Source: a virus
Lineage: Duplodnaviria > Heunggongvirae > Uroviricota > Caudoviricetes
Virus record (IMG/VR): IMGVR_UViG_3300032245_001763
Location: 1-64,000 of that record
Reading direction: 5' to 3' (one strand)
Length of the DNA: 64,000 bases
Shown here piece after piece: positions 7,534 to 54,513 of this stretch; position 1 is the stretch's first letter, and every line of letters begins with the position of its first letter. Below the pieces are notes generated by a model. That model searched no databases. It was given only the letters and a program-made list of their open reading frames with translations, and was not told where the DNA came from. Made by a program: the position numbers and the translations under genes.

Positions 7534-7604
7534 GGGGTTGTGGTGTAAATGAAAACACAATAGATTATGGTCTATATATGGAGGTTTAAATCCTTCCGAC
7601 CCCA
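7534..7604 (+). tRNA. tRNA with a 6-nt anticodon loop (ATAGA-TTATGG-TCTAT); identity uncertain
   Basis: Perfect acceptor GGGGTTG/CGACCCC, D-stem GTGT/ACAC, T-arm GGAGG-TTTAAAT-CCTTC. Confidence 0.5.
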
Positions 7605-30600: not shown

Positions 30601-30911
30601 TTAAAAATTTAAATAATATGTCTGATGAAGAAATTCTAAGCACTTTTGAAATAACTTCAGAAGAGTGTCGTGAAAACACAGAATTGTTTTCTGAATTAGA
30701 TAAAAAATTTCCAAATTCTGTTTTGGATGATTGCTTCATGTCTGTAAAGGAAGCAACATTTTATTTGTTTGCTGGCGTGGGGGCGTGCTCTCCACAATTA
30801 TATCAAATAGGTTTGGAAAAAATATCTGAATTAACAGGTAGAGAATTGGATGATTCTTTAAGAAAAGAAATTAAAGATTATTTGAACGAGTTGCCATGTC
30901 CACTTGATTAA
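30597..30911 (+). CDS. hypothetical protein
   Basis: ORF track, 104 aa. Confidence 0.45.
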   Translation: MIKNLNNMSDEEILSTFEITSEECRENTELFSELDKKFPNSVLDDCFMSVKEATFYLFAGVGACSPQLYQIGLEKISELTGRELDDSLRKEIKDYLNELPCPLD

Positions 30912-46230: not shown

Positions 46231-46740
46231 TTGTGGAATATGAATTTTTCACCATTAAAAAAATACAAATTACCAATAGGAAAAGATCATCCTGGTAATT
46301 TTGGTGCCATAAGAAAATATGATGTTCATACAGGAATAGATTTATATTGTGAACAAGGTTCAGATGTTTATGCAATTGAAGATGGTATGGTTGTAAAAAT
46401 AGATTATTTTACAGGACCAGAAGTAAATTTGCCTTGGTGGGAAACTACATTTGGAGTTATGATTGAAGGAAAATCTGGTGTAATAAATTATGGTGAAATA
46501 TATCCTGAATGTATTTTAAATCAAAAAATATTTGCTGGACAAAAAATTGGTTACGTAATTCCAGTTTTAAAAGAAAATAAAATTCGAAAAGATATAAAAA
46601 ATCACAGTAATTATATGCTTCATTTAGAATTATACAAAATTGGTTTTAGAGATTTTTTGTCTTGGAATTTAAATGAACCTCAACCTGAAAATTTATTAAA
46701 TCCTACTGGTTTACTTTCTGATAGTTTGATTGTACAATAG
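46231..46740 (+). CDS. M23 (LytM-type) peptidase, candidate cell-wall hydrolase
   Basis: HTGIDLYCEQGSDVYAIEDGMVVKI (HxxxD plus the Gly-rich sheet) and a later HLELY (degenerate HxH). Confidence 0.55.
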   Translation: MWNMNFSPLKKYKLPIGKDHPGNFGAIRKYDVHTGIDLYCEQGSDVYAIEDGMVVKIDYFTGPEVNLPWWETTFGVMIEGKSGVINYGEIYPECILNQKIFAGQKIGYVIPVLKENKIRKDIKNHSNYMLHLELYKIGFRDFLSWNLNEPQPENLLNPTGLLSDSLIVQ

Positions 46741-46836
46741 AATTGCCTGGCAGCTTGGGCTATAAAGCGGGGGCTGACAACCAAATGCAGCTACTGATAC
46801 TATCTAGGGAATCGTACTTCGAAAAGTGATAGTGGT

Positions 46837-46936
46837 TAATCTGTGGCATAGACGTGATAATTTAAATATTATGAGGAAGAGTGGGTACTTCTGCCGCCGT
46901 CCGGCTGCTTCGCGAGTTCGAGTCTCGCCAGATTAT
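46837..46936 (+). ncRNA. tRNA-like / structured RNA with a GC-rich hairpin (CTGCCGCCGTCCGGCTGC), a T-arm GCGAG-TTCGAGT-CTCGC and an acceptor-like pairing TAATCTG/CAGATTA. About 100 nt, non-canonical interior.
   Basis: 46741-46936 is markedly GC-rich relative to the window. A T-loop motif lies at 46917-46923. The upstream 5'-GGGGGCTGA at 46770 resembles a tmRNA 5' end, but no matching 3' acceptor was found. Confidence 0.3.
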
Positions 46937-46949
46937 TTCTTGAAAGAAA

Positions 46950-47213
46950 TTGAAAATGTTTATGTATAAAATTAACGAAGTTTTTGATCATTCTGTCATT
47001 AGATCTGAAGCTAATTTCGATCGTGCATCTGATGCAGCATATAAATTTGCACTTTTTAAATTTGAAATTGATGAAGATGGTCATTCTTCTAGAGTAGAAG
47101 GCTGGGAAAGGTCTTCTTGTTCGATTGAAATCGAATTTAAAAAATATATTCGTAATGGTCACGAACATGTTTATAATTTTACCATTGCAGTTAGAAAGAG
47201 TGAAAATGAGTAG
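46950..47213 (+). CDS. hypothetical protein
   Basis: ORF track, 87 aa. Confidence 0.35.
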   Translation: MKMFMYKINEVFDHSVIRSEANFDRASDAAYKFALFKFEIDEDGHSSRVEGWERSSCSIEIEFKKYIRNGHEHVYNFTIAVRKSENE

Positions 47214-47646
47214 TTTATTTGAATTGTTAAAGTCGGATTTGAAGCAAGCAATTTTGAAACAAGATTCTACTAAAAAAAATATTCTTAGAGTTGTATTAGC
47301 TGAATGTGGAAGATTGGGCTTAGGATTATCTAATTCCAATGTTCATGATGCCGATATTCAGAAAATAATTATGAAATCTATTCAAAATAATTTAGAAGTA
47401 ATGTCGATAGCTCCTTCAGAAGAACTTGAAAAAGAAAATGAAATTTTAAAATCTTATGTTCCTAAAATACCAACTCAGCAAGAATATAAAGATTTGTTAA
47501 ACACAGAAGAAGTTAGAAATTTAATTCTTGCTGAATTTAGTGAAGGTTTGGCAATGAAACAAGTTGCATCTTATTTGAAATCAAAAGATATTCCTATGGA
47601 TGGTAAAATTGTTAAATCAATAATTGCTGAAATTAGAAATCAATGA
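47206..47646 (+). CDS. hypothetical protein (start set to ATG 47206, preceded by TTAGAAAGAGTGAAA)
   Basis: The ORF track begins at 47125 inside the previous ORF; the internal ATG with the recurrent AGAAAG leader is preferred. Confidence 0.45.
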   Translation: MSSLFELLKSDLKQAILKQDSTKKNILRVVLAECGRLGLGLSNSNVHDADIQKIIMKSIQNNLEVMSIAPSEELEKENEILKSYVPKIPTQQEYKDLLNTEEVRNLILAEFSEGLAMKQVASYLKSKDIPMDGKIVKSIIAEIRNQ

Positions 47647-48507: not shown

Positions 48508-48885
48508 ATGAGTGAACCATTAGTAACCAAACAAGTAATTGTTGTAAGAAAAGATTTGAAAATGAGAAGAGGCAAGGAAATTGCACAATGCAGCCATGCC
48601 TCTATTTCTTTTCTTACTAAAAAAATGCAAAATAATATACCGTTAACAGAAGTAGAAAATACATGGTTAAATGATAGTTTTTCCAAAATATGTTTATATG
48701 TTAATTCTGAAGAAGAATTGCTAAAAGTTCACAATGATGCTCTTGAAAAAGGTTTAGAATCAAATTTAATTACTGATTCTGGTCGTACTGAATTTCATGG
48801 TGTTCCTACAAAAACTTGTTTGGCTATAGGTCCAGACTATTCTGTTAAAATTGATGAAGTAACAAGAAGTTTACCCTTGTATTAA
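48508..48885 (+). CDS. pth2: peptidyl-tRNA hydrolase, PTH2 family
   Basis: VIVVRKDLKMRRGKEIAQCSHAS matches the PTH2 signature (vVRtDL.MgkGKiaAQcsHA). Size is about 115-125 aa. Confidence 0.7.
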   Translation: MSEPLVTKQVIVVRKDLKMRRGKEIAQCSHASISFLTKKMQNNIPLTEVENTWLNDSFSKICLYVNSEEELLKVHNDALEKGLESNLITDSGRTEFHGVPTKTCLAIGPDYSVKIDEVTRSLPLY

Positions 48886-49605: not shown

Positions 49606-50189
49606 AAATTGGATATAAAGCTACCTACGACTATATTTGCAGAGATCATAAATTTGAAATAGGTCAATCTTATGAATTACAAGGAACACCAATTCCTTGC
49701 GTTTATGGATTTCACTATTGTCAAAATCCAATCGATGTTTTACATTATTATCCAATTCAACATGATTTCCGTCTATTAGAAATCGAAGATATTGGCGAAT
49801 CAATTACTCAAGGTAATAAATCAGTAACAAATAAGATCCGTATTATTCGTGAAGTTCCAAAGGAAGAATATTACCAGCTATTTGGTGTTGTTAATAATAA
49901 ACTGACAATAAGTGCTGGTATATTTGGTGCTTGGGAAAGACGAACATTTGATGAAAATAACAATGAAATTTTTTATCAAAATTCAGATGGTAATTGGGAA
50001 AAACGTGAATATGATGAAAGAAATAATTGTATTTATTATGCAACTTTATCTGGGTTTTGGATAAAACGTGAATATGATGAAAGAAATAACGAAGTTCGTT
50101 TTGAAAATTCAAGTGGTTTTTGGATAAAACAAACATTTGATAAAAATAATCGTAGAATTAATTATGAATCTAATTATGACAAAGTTTGA
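49602..50189 (+). CDS. GFHYC-domain plus MORN-variant repeat family protein
   Basis: MKIGYKATYDYICRDHKFEIGQSYELQGTPIPCVYGFHYC. Confidence 0.65.
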   Translation: MKIGYKATYDYICRDHKFEIGQSYELQGTPIPCVYGFHYCQNPIDVLHYYPIQHDFRLLEIEDIGESITQGNKSVTNKIRIIREVPKEEYYQLFGVVNNKLTISAGIFGAWERRTFDENNNEIFYQNSDGNWEKREYDERNNCIYYATLSGFWIKREYDERNNEVRFENSSGFWIKQTFDKNNRRINYESNYDKV

Positions 50190-50244
50190 TTGTACAATGT
50201 TCTTTGGAGGAATTATTTTGAACGTTTAGATTGAAAGAGCTAAA

Positions 50245-50889
50245 ATGGGAATTTTATTAAAAAATCGATGTTTAGTTTTAAACAAAAGTTGGAGTCCTAT
50301 TGGGATAATATCATTACAAAGAGCAATTACTTTACTTTGTTCTTATGATGAAAAAGATAATCCAAAAGCAAAAATAATTGATGGTGGATCTGGTTCATAT
50401 CAATTATTTTCTTGGAATGAATGGTCAAAATTAACTCCATCTGAAAATGAACTTTTTATTCAAAGTTCTCATACAAGATATAGAGTGCCAGAAATAATTA
50501 TTTTAACTGGATTTGATAAAATTCCATCTCCAAGAGTGCATTTTAGCAGGTCTACTATCTTCAAAAGAGATAATTATATTTGCCAATATTGTGGTAAAAA
50601 AGTTGATAAGGATTCTGGAACAATTGATCATATTTTGCCAAGAGCACAAGGTGGCGTTACAAGTTGGACAAATTGTATTTTAGCTTGTATGGGATGTAAT
50701 TCTCAAAAAGCGGATCGTAGACCTGAACAGGCTTTTAGAACAGATAAAAATAAGAATTGGAACGGACCTTCTCCAATGAAATTAATGTCTATTCCTAAAA
50801 AGCCAAAATTTAATTTAATTAAATATGATAAAGGTCAGATGCCAAAATCATGGACTAATTTTATCCAAGATGGATCTTTTCATGAATGA
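50245..50889 (+). CDS. HNH endonuclease
   Basis: CQYCGKKVDKDSGTIDHILPRAQGGVTSWTNCILACMGCNSQKADRRP is the HNH core (C..C...H...N...C..C). Confidence 0.7.
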   Translation: MGILLKNRCLVLNKSWSPIGIISLQRAITLLCSYDEKDNPKAKIIDGGSGSYQLFSWNEWSKLTPSENELFIQSSHTRYRVPEIIILTGFDKIPSPRVHFSRSTIFKRDNYICQYCGKKVDKDSGTIDHILPRAQGGVTSWTNCILACMGCNSQKADRRPEQAFRTDKNKNWNGPSPMKLMSIPKKPKFNLIKYDKGQMPKSWTNFIQDGSFHE

Positions 50890-51484: not shown

Positions 51485-51742
51485 ATGGGATATCATCTTT
51501 CAACAATACCAAAAGGTATTGTTGGTGAATTTTCTAAAATTGAAGAAGAATTTTTTGAAGCTAAAGATGCATCTATGCAAAACGATTCTGTTTTAATGTT
51601 AGTTGAATTATCAGATATGATTGGTGCAATAGAAGAATATGTTAAAAAATGGAATATGTCTATTGATGATTTAAAGAGTTTTTCAGATAAAACTAAATTA
51701 GCCTTTAAGGATGGAACGAGAGTTTCTAAACAATCTCTATAA
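51485..51742 (+). CDS. putative MazG-like all-alpha nucleotide pyrophosphohydrolase
   Basis: EFSKIEEEFFEAKD...LVELSDMIGAIEEYVKKW carries the paired EExxE/ExxD helices. Start moved to ATG 51485 after the upstream stop. Confidence 0.3.
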   Translation: MGYHLSTIPKGIVGEFSKIEEEFFEAKDASMQNDSVLMLVELSDMIGAIEEYVKKWNMSIDDLKSFSDKTKLAFKDGTRVSKQSL

Positions 51743-53000
51743 AATTTTCTTTTTTCAAAACATCTTTTATAAAGTCAAGATATCTATCAGCAGTTTTTTC
51801 CCAAATATTTTCTTGTATATATTTGTTGTTTAATGATATTAAATTGTTTTTATAATTATGATCTGAAAATATTTTATCAATTTCTTTTGAAAGTTCTTCA
51901 GCACTGCTTGGTCTGGGTACAACATTATTTAAATCATCAAACATATTGCTTTCTGATGTTATTACTGGTATTTGGTTTGCCATTGCAACACGCACCGCAC
52001 CAGATGCTCCGTAAACAATATTATTTGGATTAGTTACATAAGGAAATAATGCTAATTTTGCTGTTCTTAAATAATTGTTAATTATTTCGTCTGAATTATA
52101 TTTTCTTATAATTGCTATATTGTCATATAAGTTAAATTTTTCAATAATTGATTCAAGATAATTTTGGTATTCAGCATGTGTTCCAACTGCATTTGCTGAT
52201 TCAGAGCAAAGATAACAATAAAATATATCTTTGTATTTTTCTGGAAATTTATTTTTTAATATTCCTACTGCTTCAATTGCCCTATCTACACCTTTGTAGA
52301 AAAATCCAAAACCAAATTGTACTATTGCATATGGTGTTTGGAAAGTATTCCACAATTCTTTTACATCGTTAAATTCTACACAACCATGAGGTATAACACG
52401 TATTAAATTATTGGTGTGTCCAAGGTTTTCAAGAGCACCTTTTCCAGAATTAGAATGAACAATAATATTTTTTGCTACAGATGTGAATATTGTTTTATCC
52501 ATGTGAGATTTATACACAGAATGTAAAACAATAGCATATGGAATATTTTCTAATTCTTGAATAAACTTCAAATAATGGGTGGCTTTTGGAAATATTCCAA
52601 ATTCATGCTGAATAATTACAAAATTTGGCTTCCAATCTTTTATTTCTTTTGAAAGATTTTTTAAAGTTTCACCTCTTACCCAGCATCTTGAAACATTTTC
52701 TTCAACATCATGTGATAAATCAGCTTTTTCTTCAATTTCTGAAAATATTTTTATTTCATTTACTTTAGATCTAAGTGCGTCAACCAAATATTTTGAATAT
52801 GTAGAAATTCCACAAGGAGTTCTCCAATTACATACAACTGCAATTTTCATTTTTTCTGGACTCATTGTACCTATTCTTTTTCCAATAATATTTTCTTCTA
52901 CATTATCTACTTTGTACAAATTATCTAAATTTGATACTTGAACTTCTCTATCAAATACACCTTTAATACGATCATTGTTATCAGTAAATATATACTTCAT
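51726..53000 (-). CDS. Glycosyltransferase, GT4-like (GT-B fold)
   Basis: C-terminal FPYVTNPNNIVYGASGAVRVAMANQIPVITSE resembles the GT4 E..G..l.EAma.G.PvI motif. Confidence 0.45.
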   Translation of the reverse strand: MKYIFTDNNDRIKGVFDREVQVSNLDNLYKVDNVEENIIGKRIGTMSPEKMKIAVVCNWRTPCGISTYSKYLVDALRSKVNEIKIFSEIEEKADLSHDVEENVSRCWVRGETLKNLSKEIKDWKPNFVIIQHEFGIFPKATHYLKFIQELENIPYAIVLHSVYKSHMDKTIFTSVAKNIIVHSNSGKGALENLGHTNNLIRVIPHGCVEFNDVKELWNTFQTPYAIVQFGFGFFYKGVDRAIEAVGILKNKFPEKYKDIFYCYLCSESANAVGTHAEYQNYLESIIEKFNLYDNIAIIRKYNSDEIINNYLRTAKLALFPYVTNPNNIVYGASGAVRVAMANQIPVITSESNMFDDLNNVVPRPSSAEELSKEIDKIFSDHNYKNNLISLNNKYIQENIWEKTADRYLDFIKDVLKKENFIEIV

Positions 53001-53055: not shown

Positions 53056-54513
53056 TTAAGATTTATTCTTTATTCCAGCTTTAATTGCATTTAAAGCTGT
53101 CGCTGTCCAAGCGTTTGATGTTTCGGGATTTGCATCAAATGCCTCTACATTATATGGTGTTGTTGATTGTAAAATTCCAGTAACAGTCTTGTTCGATCCA
53201 ATCTCATTACCGTTCATTACAAATTTAACAGTACCAGTCACGCCAGATTGAGCTTCAGTAAACAGAGAATTGAATTGAACGCCTTTAACATCATTGATTG
53301 TTGACAAATTTGACATGTTAAATTGTGCCAAATCACCATTAGTGTTTGAGGTAATAAATTTACTTAACGTACTGTGAGTCTGACTCATATCTCTAGCAGA
53401 CAAGGAGCCTGTATAATCTAATGATAAATCATCAATATAAATAGCAGATCCTGTTGCAAGTGGACCAAATCTAATTACTGATTGAGGCGTTAATGAATAT
53501 GTGAATTGTTGATAAGTTGTTGTTAAATTTAAAGTGTTTGTTGTTCCATTTATGATTATTGGAAAAGTTGAAGTTGATGCACTTCTAGCCCAAAACGACA
53601 TTGATACTGCATCTGTTGTAAATTCCATCCATACAGAAGTGTTATTAAAAGCAAGACAGGCTGGAGAAGTACGAAAACTGCTTGTTGATCTTGCAATATA
53701 TCTAAAATTGAAAGCTGTCTCATTTAAATAGCTAATATTTGTAACTCCAAGAGGAATTAAAAATTCATGTGGATCAGTAAATGTTGCATCAAATGATGTT
53801 GATAATACAGTTCCATTGCTGTTTGTGAAATTTACTGTATCATCAGTTGTTGGCGATAACATTTCAATTCTTGGAATATACAACTCTGTTCCAATTTTTG
53901 CATTATTTCTTGTTCCTGTATTATCAACGACATAAAAGTCATCGACTCGATATTCGCTGTTTCCAGCAATATAGAGTGTGAAAGTACCATCATAATTCAT
54001 TGATGTGCTACTTGTCCCGCGTTCAGTTCCATCAACATAAAGTCTAATTGGAGTTCCGGCAGATGGAGTAATCGGAATTAATAATTCAATGTGTCTCCAG
54101 GTATTTGCAAGTCCAGAGTATGGTGTTGAATAAACTGCAACTGAATTTAAGCTAAATCTATAATCAAGACTGTTAATTAGAATTCTCAATCCCTTTGTCG
54201 TGTCAGTTGGAGTTGAATTAGTCAATCTAATATCAATGTTACTTTCTTGACTTCCAAATCTCAGATTAAATCCAACAACAAAATAAGTTACACCAGAAGA
54301 AGAAACTGCTTTTTTTAATTGTCCTGGATTTTTACCTGGAACAACAGATGCAGAGTTTCCGCCAAATCTTCCAGGTTTAGCAATCCAAGAGCCAGCAACA
54401 GTATTAAAATTTCTTGCCAGTCCAGTAGTAATTGAATCAGTTGGATCATTTCCTGCCGTGTTTAATGCGTAATGTCCGTAATTTTCAAATCCTTCTAAAA
54501 ACCTAATTGCCAT
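53056..54513 (-). CDS. Large structural (fibre/receptor-binding-like) protein, paralogue of 57715-59499
   Basis: The N-termini MAIRFLEGFENYGHY and MGIIFFDSFDHYTHH are alike. Both are S/T/N-rich with a beta-rich composition. Confidence 0.45.
   Translation of the reverse strand: MAIRFLEGFENYGHYALNTAGNDPTDSITTGLARNFNTVAGSWIAKPGRFGGNSASVVPGKNPGQLKKAVSSSGVTYFVVGFNLRFGSQESNIDIRLTNSTPTDTTKGLRILINSLDYRFSLNSVAVYSTPYSGLANTWRHIELLIPITPSAGTPIRLYVDGTERGTSSTSMNYDGTFTLYIAGNSEYRVDDFYVVDNTGTRNNAKIGTELYIPRIEMLSPTTDDTVNFTNSNGTVLSTSFDATFTDPHEFLIPLGVTNISYLNETAFNFRYIARSTSSFRTSPACLAFNNTSVWMEFTTDAVSMSFWARSASTSTFPIIINGTTNTLNLTTTYQQFTYSLTPQSVIRFGPLATGSAIYIDDLSLDYTGSLSARDMSQTHSTLSKFITSNTNGDLAQFNMSNLSTINDVKGVQFNSLFTEAQSGVTGTVKFVMNGNEIGSNKTVTGILQSTTPYNVEAFDANPETSNAWTATALNAIKAGIKNKS

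Follow-up and report, generated by a model that had tools for sequence, protein, structure and literature searches.

Genomic setting of the RNA locus

The 64,000-nt stretch of viral DNA analyzed here (positions 1 to 64,000 of the IMG/VR record IMGVR_UViG_3300032245_001763, hereafter the window) matches the ENA metagenome scaffold KRAE22-1_SAMEA4981813 scaffold_3 (530,789 bp), is megaphage-like and very AT-rich, and carries 31 transfer RNAs (tRNAs) called by ARAGORN in its first 22.5 kb. Our subject is an RNA locus of about 193 nt that is flanked by the gene for an M23 peptidase and by an 85-aa open reading frame (ORF), ORF85, after which YqeY-like, Ogg/HhH-like, 97-aa and PTH2 genes follow in this order, all on the plus strand (Table 1). 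A first-pass annotation, made from the sequence alone, had marked the interval as strikingly GC-rich within an otherwise AT-rich genome, and base composition bears this out: compared with a GC content of 26.7% for the whole 64-kb window, the locus reaches up to 52.5% in 80-nt windows and 41–46% in 100-nt windows, and it is the longest GC island of the window outside the tRNA clusters. The strings quoted in that annotation (GCCTGGCAGCTTGGGC at 46745–46760, GGGGGCTGAC at 46769–46778 and CTGCCGCC...CTCGCC at 46891–46929) are all found in place. Fifteen of the 20 islands in the window with at least 45% GC overlap called tRNAs, and the finding shows GC islands in very AT-rich phage genomes to be a good pointer to structured RNAs missed by standard tools. 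The other islands at or above this threshold without called-tRNA overlap lie at 30716–30797, 53996–54077 and 54317–54403.

Conservation was assessed in a four-sequence alignment comprising the window, two near-identical strains (L002 and L003) and one diverged homologue (L220), which was reached via its Ogg-like protein (81% aa identity) and which shares the gene order and carries a clearly homologous RNA. The samples that contain this phage are ERZ28594238/SAMEA4981813, SRR24742824, SRR13425445 and ERZ724522.

Table 1. Coordinates of the RNA locus, its predicted parts and the neighboring genes in the window
Feature	Coordinates	Strand	Remarks
M23 peptidase gene	46240–46740	+	Stop TAG at 46738–46740
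Promoter-like 16-mer AGTTTGATTGTACAAT	46723–46738	+	Overlaps the M23 gene end; ends 6 nt before the GC-rich block
Conserved RNA block, whole	46744–46936	+	5′ end placed from promoter spacing; 3′ end is the discriminator-like U
Invariant 5′ segment UGCCUGGCA	46744–46752	+	Zero changes in four sequences; unpaired in the preferred fold
Hairpin Ha, GCUU-GGGCUAUA-AAGC	46753–46768	+	Stem invariant; L220 loop changes 46760 C>U and 46763 U>A
Hairpin Hb, GCUG-A-CA-ACCAAA-UG-CAGC	46773–46791	+	Compensatory C46774:G46790 to U:A in L220; bulged A46777 to C
Hairpin Hc, ACUAUC ... GAUAGU, inner stem ACUU-CGAA-AAGU	46799–46833	+	Predicted fold; stem identical in window and L220
Acceptor-like stem, 5′ strand UAAUCUG	46837–46843	+	Pairs with 46929–46935; invariant in 4/4 sequences
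U8-like U46844 and 30-nt insertion with conserved GGCAUAGACG and H1	46844–46874	+	H1 is AUAAU (46857–61) / AUUAU (46868–72)
D-arm, GAAG-AGUGGGUA-CUUC	46875–46892	+	Arm proper 46876–46891; possible extra G46875.U46892 pair
Hairpin H3, GCCG-CCGUC-CGGC, in the anticodon-arm place	46893–46905	+	4-bp stem, 5-nt loop
Invariant linker UGCUUC	46906–46911	+	C46911 at the position of C48, partner of G15
T-arm, GCGAG-UUCGAGU-CUCGC	46912–46928	+	Strict pattern fit; G46912:C46928 to G.U in L002 and L003
Acceptor-like stem, 3′ strand CAGAUUA, and discriminator-like U46936	46929–46936	+	Conservation ends exactly here
Hypervariable spacer before ORF85 (ATG 46956)	46937–46955	+	Outside the RNA
ORF85	46956–47213	+	85 aa
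YqeY-like gene	47206–47646	+	PHROG 'tRNA amidotransferase' match, 1e-11
PTH2 peptidyl-tRNA hydrolase gene	48508–48885	+	1.6 kb downstream of the RNA

A tRNA-shaped 3′ domain without a conserved anticodon loop

A strict T-arm pattern (five pairs, a TTCRANN loop and G53-C61) has 25 occurrences in the window, where 0.17 are expected from composition-matched shuffles (an expectation that covers 128 kb, both strands), and 22 of the 25 lie inside called tRNAs, so that the pattern is essentially confined to tRNAs in this genome. The three that lie outside are at 46912–46928, 3147–3163 and 5527–5543, and the first of these, GCGAG-TTCGAGT-CTCGC, is the canonical T-arm that the first-pass annotation had claimed for the locus; the GC hairpin that it had also described (GCCG-CCGTC-CGGC, H3 in Table 1) is likewise real and carries a compensatory change. 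The 7 nt after the T-arm complete a perfect 7-bp Watson-Crick stem with the acceptor-like 5′ strand (p~0.010 in shuffled upstream sequence), and the D-arm fits its pattern with p~0.028 in shuffled interior sequence. Read as a tRNA, the 3′ domain (46837–46936, 100 nt) pairs from U1-A72 to G7-C66 and has U8 (46844), U26 and U73, a D-arm with A14, G15, GGG and A21, and a linker C at the C48 position. In the predicted fold the 7-bp acceptor stem is stacked on the T-arm and the GG of the D-arm can dock on the T-loop. No CCA is encoded after U46936, as is the case for the other tRNAs in the window.

The domain thus shares with class I tRNAs (RF00005) a 7-bp acceptor stem coaxial with a 5-bp T-arm, the UUCGAGU loop, G53-C61, U8, the D-arm residues A14, G15, GG and A21, C48, an unpaired base after the acceptor stem and the same promoter type within this phage group. 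It departs from them by a 30-nt extra hairpin between nucleotides 8 and 9, by an arm of only 13 nt (4-bp stem, 5-nt loop) where the 17-nt anticodon arm would stand, by a 93-nt conserved and structured 5′ extension of the RNA and by the lack of any RF00005 score at E<=10. In terms of membership in the tRNA family, both the acceptor/T-arm and the D-arm (A14, R15, G18G19, A21) hallmarks are present, and both a 5-bp stem with a conserved 7-nt loop (U33, purine 37) and recognition by tRNA models are lacking. None of the arms has a conserved 7-nt loop, as the loop of H1 goes from 6 nt in the window to 8 nt in L220, the D-loop (H2) carries two changes and the loop of H3 has 5 nt, and the 3′ domain therefore cannot present an anticodon.

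Two more conventional assignments were discarded. H1 as an ochre-suppressor anticodon arm (loop AUUUAAA) fails because neither the loop nor the register is conserved in L220. A tRNA-Ser/Sec-type gene with an unusual fold, one of the identities offered by the first-pass annotation, is contradicted by the absence of any Rfam tRNA or tRNA-Sec match at E<=10 and of a conserved 7-nt loop, by a 7/5 geometry rather than the 8/5 or 9/4 of tRNA-Sec, and by the position of the GC hairpin, which stands in the anticodon-arm place and not beside such an arm.

The 5′ 93 nt of the RNA form, in the preferred fold, the hairpins Ha, Hb and Hc around highly conserved single-stranded segments. The GGGGGCTGA string that had been likened to the 5′ end of transfer-messenger RNAs (tmRNAs) is present, but it does not behave as such an end: it lies ~25 nt inside the transcript and is without a complementary 3′ strand, and the GCUG that ends the 'tmRNA-like' GGGGGCUGA string is, by covariation, the 5′ strand of hairpin Hb. 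Two ideas about the 5′ domain were also rejected, namely that it is paralogous to one of the window's tRNAs and that it duplicates the 5′ portion of the 3′ domain.

Conservation and covariation

In the comparison of the window with L220, no other segment of the locus is as well conserved as the RNA, whose identity is 91.3% compared with 78.6% for the 3′ end of the M23 gene, 68.4% for the spacer, 61.8% for ORF85 (54% at the aa level), 68.1% for the YqeY-like gene and 82.3% for the Ogg-like gene. This excess of conservation is significant both relative to the pooled flanks (binomial p=4e-10) and relative to the Ogg-like gene alone (p=0.0026). The near-identical strains show 2–3 changes in the RNA's 195 nt and 4 in the next 19 nt (p~0.001), from which it follows that the constraint ends exactly at U46936; the block end given by the first-pass annotation is therefore supported, the 19 nt that follow being hypervariable.

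The local helices (Ha, Hb, Hc, the acceptor-like stem, H1, the D-arm, H3 and the T-arm) had been defined before L220 was found. The four sequences vary at 17 sites, of which 11 lie outside helices, five retain their pairing and one disrupts a terminal pair (P~0.017–0.05). Four of the pair-keeping sites form two compensatory pairs, 46774:46790 (CG>UA, in Hb) and 46893:46905 (GC>AU, in H3), and the fifth is a GC>GU change in the T-stem; the pair-breaking change, U46827G, affects the terminal pair of the Hc inner stem and occurs in L002 only. Covariation also fixes the register of H3 as a 4-bp stem with a 5-nt loop, since L220 would lose two pairs in the 5-bp/6-nt-loop register on which ARAGORN relied; the first base of the H3 loop also changes there, from C to A. 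The D-loop of L220 reads AGAGGGCA and differs only at positions 16 and 20, which are variable in real tRNAs, with A14, G15, GG and A21 all kept. The stem of H1 is invariant, with the loop-length change noted above and two further differences immediately 5′ of the stem in L220.

A 64-nt stretch (46791–46854) is identical in the window and L220, and L002 differs from it once, at 46827; RNAalifold gives another pairing for this stretch. A micro-ORF, MQLLILSRESYFEK, lies at 46785–46829, almost wholly within the identical stretch; in this frame G46790A is synonymous and the stop is shifted by one codon in L002. Constraint at the RNA level seems the better account of the 64-nt stretch, because the invariance runs 25 nt past the ORF.

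The same data bear on whether the locus could be a decaying tRNA gene, a pseudogene remnant without present function. Such a remnant could go unrecognized by ARAGORN and Rfam, and it would agree with the abnormal anticodon arm, the several tRNA-fragment-like pieces and the narrow distribution of what is a lineage-specific insertion. A remnant is however not expected to be the most conserved segment of its locus, to acquire compensatory changes while its substitutions fall in loops, to keep 45–52% GC in a 26.7% GC genome, or to lose conservation sharply at the discriminator position, and we regard this explanation as improbable. By these sequence criteria the RNA gene at the locus is real, in that it is constrained, structured, tRNA-derived and non-decoding, and it is without a described family. 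Since decoding has been lost while constraint exceeds that on the neighboring protein genes, the RNA must do something else.

Standard detectors and the intron and tmRNA readings

At default settings ARAGORN finds neither a tRNA nor a tmRNA at the locus, and Rfam 15 at gathering thresholds finds no match of any family there. With thresholds relaxed to E<=10, a 451-nt query gives no tRNA, tmRNA or tRNA-Sec match, and RF00005 has no match in either the 451-nt or the 81-nt search. In the 81-nt search the T-arm hairpin alone is matched, by the tmRNA model (9.5 bits, gathering 47, with a local match that spans the 18-nt T-arm only) and by YrlA (11.4 bits, gathering 69); among the other Rfam families, including the permuted and other variant tmRNA models, none reached E<=10. 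The Rfam scan that the first-pass annotation had proposed as a check accordingly returned no family and only local sub-gathering matches to the T-arm, and the ARAGORN -m search that it had also proposed returned nothing at the default or the 80% threshold, a 'tmRNAp' appearing only at 60%. Its statement that neither a full tmRNA fold nor a canonical tRNA can be fitted is in keeping with the ARAGORN defaults and with Rfam 15. It had further named the lack of an Rfam hit, in combination with that of a transcript, as an outcome that would speak against the candidate; no Rfam match is found, yet conservation and covariation reveal a structured RNA under constraint all the same.

ARAGORN calls at lowered thresholds are mutually inconsistent and were taken as leads only: at 90% the call is tRNA-Gly(gcc) interrupted by a 115-nt intron, at 70% a tRNA whose anticodon has 2 nt, and at 60% a 'tmRNAp' whose tag is AATDTI*. 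Deletion of 46845–46873, the 30-nt insertion, does produce an ARAGORN call at default settings; at least one call was also obtained from 9 of 15 shuffled interiors, however, and because shuffled controls are called so often we do not count this result as evidence.

A rival reading is an intron-containing tRNA of the Lak type, in which the 5′ domain would be exon 1 (acceptor GCCUGGC, D-arm, loop CUGACAA, anticodon GAC) and a ~110-nt insert with the tRNA-like element would be removed. Lak megaphage tRNAs carry comparable inserts, 79–114 nt long, at position 37/38 and with an acceptor/T-arm element; these inserts have no Rfam match except that of tRNA-Thr, in which Rfam found a tRNA (PMC6784885). 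The segment 46837–46936 does hold such an acceptor/T-arm element, the 5′ domain starts at the same distance from the promoter motif as tRNAs do, and it is with introns allowed that ARAGORN makes its tRNA-Gly(gcc) call. Nevertheless, the locus has a single T-arm, whose following 7 nt pair with 46837–43 and not with the 5′ end; the outer acceptor pairing is broken by U46743C in L220; and the putative anticodon loop CUGACAA becomes UUGCCAA in L220, where C46774U is compensated by G46790A in Hb instead. Furthermore, ARAGORN at default settings calls no tRNA after any of 1,955 single excisions, the best of which reach 94–97% of its threshold with mismatched stems, and no matching 3′ exon exists within the window. 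A spliced tRNA is therefore hard to reconcile with the locus, and we attach little probability to it.

A reduced or two-piece tmRNA-like ribosome-rescue RNA fares worse still; a degenerate or two-piece tmRNA-like element had been among the options of the first-pass annotation. It would draw on the 60% ARAGORN call with its AATDTI* tag, on the local match of the T-arm to the tmRNA model, on the PTH2 gene downstream and on the precedent that huge phages can encode tmRNAs (PMC7162821). Against it stand the blank ARAGORN results at default and 80%, an Rfam tmRNA score far under its gathering threshold and confined to the T-arm, the silence of the variant models, and an acceptor stem that reads U1-A72/A2-U71/A3-U70 (then U-A, C-G, U-A, G-C) and is without G3:U70. 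Moreover, the candidate tag lies 5′ of the tRNA-like domain and outside the closing helix, G46790A alters it non-synonymously in L220 (A to T) while being compensatory in Hb, no pseudoknots were found, and the PTH2 gene is replaced in L002 and L003, which keep the RNA. No SmpB was seen among the neighbor proteins scanned in the window, which represents 64 kb of the 530-kb genome. On these sequence grounds the tmRNA reading is largely refuted, and we give it hardly any credence.

In L002 and L003 the gene that takes the place of PTH2 is unrelated and encodes ~290 aa, and the identity of both strains to the window drops abruptly after ~48500, which points to a recombination or cassette boundary.

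Promoter-like motif, transcript extent and a possible leader function

The promoter-like 16-mer AGTTTGATTGTACAAT has three exact copies in the window (497–512, 46723–46738 and 50183–50198), and the copy at the RNA is 100% conserved in L002, L003 and L220. The first copy sits 3 nt before a sub-threshold tRNA-Met(CAT) at 516–585, and the third, 3.4 kb downstream of that of the RNA, precedes an HNH gene at 50245. The 15-mer core GTTTGATTGTACAAT recurs in more than 60 copies in one 320-kb IMG/VR contig, IMGVR_UViG_3300032245_001746, where it is positioned 8–12 nt upstream of tRNAs and 25–40 nt upstream of small ORFs. On the basis of this position and repetition we read the motif as what is apparently a phage promoter common to a group of huge phages, and its spacing places the predicted transcript start at ~46744. 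The motif was recorded at loci L101, L104, L133–L136, L171 and L176. The tRNA-Met(CAT) itself scores 20.9 bits with the Rfam tRNA model (gathering 29), is called by ARAGORN only at the 80% threshold and has G.G and C.A mismatches at the top of its acceptor stem.

No convincing terminator was found between the RNA and ORF85, the sole terminator-like call being the T-arm itself plus a U-rich tail, and the RNA is for this reason probably the first element of a longer transcript. This arrangement raises the alternative that it is a cis-acting 5′ leader of an ORF85/YqeY/Ogg/PTH2 transcript, whose tRNA shape would serve as a processing or stability signal ('tRNA punctuation') or as a switch in which a T-arm-sequestering fold controls downstream expression. 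The absence of a strong terminator and the distance to the next promoter-motif copy agree with such a leader, and the bare minihelix at 5507–5551, just before tRNA-His, resembles a free processing signal. An appropriate second fold also exists: the RNAalifold consensus pairs 46747–46761 with 46915–46931, across the T-arm, so that the invariant segment UGCCUGGCA becomes complementary to the T-arm 3′ strand and the one-sided changes C46760U and C46928U are retained as G.U pairs, and the minimum free energy is -55.9 kcal/mol unconstrained compared with -52.2 kcal/mol with the T-arm enforced. In the opposite direction, the RNA (91%) is conserved far above both ORF85 (62% nt, 54% aa) and the intervening spacer (68%), a bare processing signal needs neither 193 conserved nt nor a 64-nt identical block, and the duplex that the 5′ end would form with the T-arm has an energy only marginally different from that of shuffles (p=0.064). 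A leader function is accordingly an unlikely alternative, and the alternative fold itself may be a second conformer of the RNA.

We prefer the tRNA-like fold because none of its three hallmarks, the T-arm pattern, the acceptor complement (p~0.01) and the D-arm (p~0.03), is likely to arise by chance and because together they typify tRNAs.

Distribution and origin

Searches of phage GenBank by blastn and megablast produced no usable relative of the RNA, a protein query and six sequence patterns in IMG/VR gave only chance matches or an unrelated tRNA-Ser, and a scan of JGI/ENA metagenomes yielded no additional RNA-bearing contig. In a genome scan with a T-arm 20-mer, the T-arm proved generic to many tRNA isotypes and one tmRNA, and such matches therefore say nothing on the origin of the RNA. 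The neighboring genes were followed as well. Homologues of the M23 peptidase (<=64% identity) occur in other megaphage contigs, where the RNA is not found downstream and where they often stand beside tRNA genes. A word-indexed search of 5.8 billion proteins with the YqeY-like protein retrieved its own strain variant only, and diverged copies (30–60% aa) are present in L220, L221, L223 and L224. In the last three, genes of 114 aa and 67 aa are followed directly by the YqeY/Ogg region in the same order, without M23, RNA or ORF85, and from this absence we conclude, on comparative sequence grounds, that the M23-RNA-ORF85 block is lineage-specific.

Among the phage's own tRNAs, tRNA-Glu and tRNA-Asp have T-arms similar to that of the RNA, in keeping with an origin from a tRNA gene. 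The most likely ancestor of the RNA gene is a tRNA gene that moved together with the adjacent M23 peptidase gene.

A proposed non-decoding, tRNA-derived RNA and its predicted processing

With moderate confidence, and from the sequence evidence above, we propose that the region encodes a functional, non-decoding, tRNA-derived RNA of ~193 nt that is transcribed from the promoter-like motif at 46723–46738. Among the identities suggested by the first-pass annotation, that of a novel tRNA-like noncoding RNA is the one that fits, and those of a tmRNA and a tRNA-Ser/Sec are not supported. A 12-bp acceptor/T minihelix with an intact elbow is the feature by which RNase P, the 3′ tRNA-processing enzymes and the CCA-adding enzyme recognize their substrates, and the corresponding sequence features, a 12-bp acceptor/T-arm minihelix and a D/T elbow, are present and conserved here. 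They would make the 3′ domain a substrate for tRNA processing, with cleavage expected at 46836/46837 and after U46936 because minihelix and elbow match what these enzymes recognize. In the model that we envisage, the parent transcript would run on into ORF85 and the YqeY-like, Ogg-like and PTH2 genes; cleavage by RNase P at 46836/46837, trimming after U46936 by a 3′ tRNA-processing enzyme and the addition of CCA would yield a stable tRNA mimic of ~100 nt and a 5′ RNA of ~93 nt. The mimic would go on to engage some tRNA-binding partner without decoding. A role in trans rather than as a mere processing signal is suggested by the 64-nt identical stretch, which spans the predicted cleavage site, and by the invariance of the single-stranded segments UGCCUGGCA, GGCAUAGACG and UGCUUC.

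Several observations weigh against this proposal. The RNA is found in only two closely related sub-lineages, and shuffled sequences are predicted to fold as stably as it does (whole RNA, z = 0.06; 3′ domain, z = -0.38). The stems of the acceptor, D-arm, Ha and H1 are invariant, and those of the T-arm and Hc have one change each, so that an alignment of four sequences, three of them near-identical, hardly tests these helices. RNAalifold prefers the fold across the T-arm described above, which fits every substitution, and the ARAGORN call after deletion of the insertion is a weak test. Finally, what the mimic binds and what it does are purely conjectural.

Comparison with known tRNA-like systems

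A parallel in a comparable genome is provided by the 'enigmatic introns' of Lak phages (Devoto et al. 2019, PMC6784885), which likewise come from a huge AT-rich phage and combine an acceptor stem and T-arm with a non-canonical interior. The elements at 3089–3171 and 5507–5551 of the window are free-standing examples of a similar build. The RNA differs from the Lak elements in that no host tRNA carries it in its anticodon loop and no exons can be put together around it, in that its D-arm is complete and its conserved 5′ domain large, and in the lack of sequence similarity to the published inserts (Table S6), which have a hairpin along with an AAAUUAAA motif that the RNA lacks.

Like the tRNA-like domain of tmRNA (RF00023), the RNA is non-decoding and has an acceptor stem and a T-arm; both also have, past the acceptor strand, an unpaired stretch that contains GG and reads UGGCAUAGACG here and GGAUUCGAC in E. 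coli tmRNA. It is only half the size of a tmRNA and is without G3:U70, and no mRNA-like module or pseudoknots lie inside the closing helix.

YrlA (RF02553) similarly joins a tRNA-like module, consisting of a T-arm, a D-arm and an acceptor-like stem, to a second structured module, and Y RNA-like RNAs were reportedly found in phages by Chen et al. in 2014. In YrlA, however, the ends of the molecule form the Ro-binding stem and the acceptor-like stem is loop-closed, whereas here it is the acceptor stem that is formed by the domain's ends, with the additional module attached as a 5′ extension. The YrlA score is likewise under its gathering threshold and limited to the T-arm, and there is no Ro/TROVE domain among the neighboring proteins.

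A further likeness is to mascRNA, at the 3′ end of MALAT1, and to mitochondrial tRNA punctuation, in which a cloverleaf with intact acceptor, T- and D-arms and a defective anticodon arm lies inside a longer transcript. As in those cases, RNase P and RNase Z would cut at the domain borders; those examples are eukaryotic, the conservation of the RNA exceeds what a processing signal needs, and processing at this locus is predicted only. As far as the tests run can tell, the RNA is not a member of the tRNA, tmRNA, YrlA or Lak-insert families, and like all of them it pairs a tRNA-shaped module with something else.

A bolder proposal, which we advance tentatively and with low confidence, is that the RNA is the founding member of an undescribed class of phage tRNA mimics, in which a non-decoding tRNA-shaped handle is joined to a conserved effector domain (here the 64-nt identical stretch and the 5′ hairpins) and acts in trans on tRNAs or the translation machinery, or as a decoy for host tRNA-targeting defenses; the Lak tRNA inserts and the free-standing acceptor/T-arm elements of the window would belong to the same repertoire. 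On present evidence it is one small family with a narrow distribution. It combines tRNA descent and the loss of decoding with a constraint above that of the surrounding protein genes. Megaphages like this one encode dozens of tRNAs, of which many are non-canonical, and their tRNA 'introns' still lack an explanation. A function for the RNA, if found, would add a phage example to the functional tRNA mimics, among them the tRNA-like domain of tmRNA, Y RNA-like RNAs and viral tRNA-like structures, and might illuminate the tRNA-like inserts of Lak phages.

Other unusual tRNA-like elements in the window

Besides the RNA, the window holds two further T-arm/acceptor elements that are not called as tRNAs. 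The one at 3089–3171, missed by ARAGORN and placed directly after an odd tRNA (3012–3085), lacks a D-arm and consists of a canonical T-arm, an 8-bp internal arm and an 8-bp acceptor stem that includes G3.U70 (z = -2.1). The other, at 5507–5551, consists only of an acceptor/T-arm minihelix (CAAACAG ... ATAAG-TTCGATT-CTTAT ... CTGTTTG) and precedes tRNA-His (5554–5639) by 3 nt. A tRNA-Pyl(cta) with a 611-nt intron called by ARAGORN in intron mode at 51500–52200 was rejected as a false positive, being AT-rich, having a non-canonical T-loop and spanning coding sequence. Among the called tRNAs, odd anticodon loops are seen in that at 7534–7604, with the 6-nt loop UUAUGG (Rfam 51 bits), and in that at 3012–3085, with the 8-nt loop AAUAUUGU, and unusually long tRNAs include those at 1619–1710 (92 nt) and 5554–5639 (86 nt).

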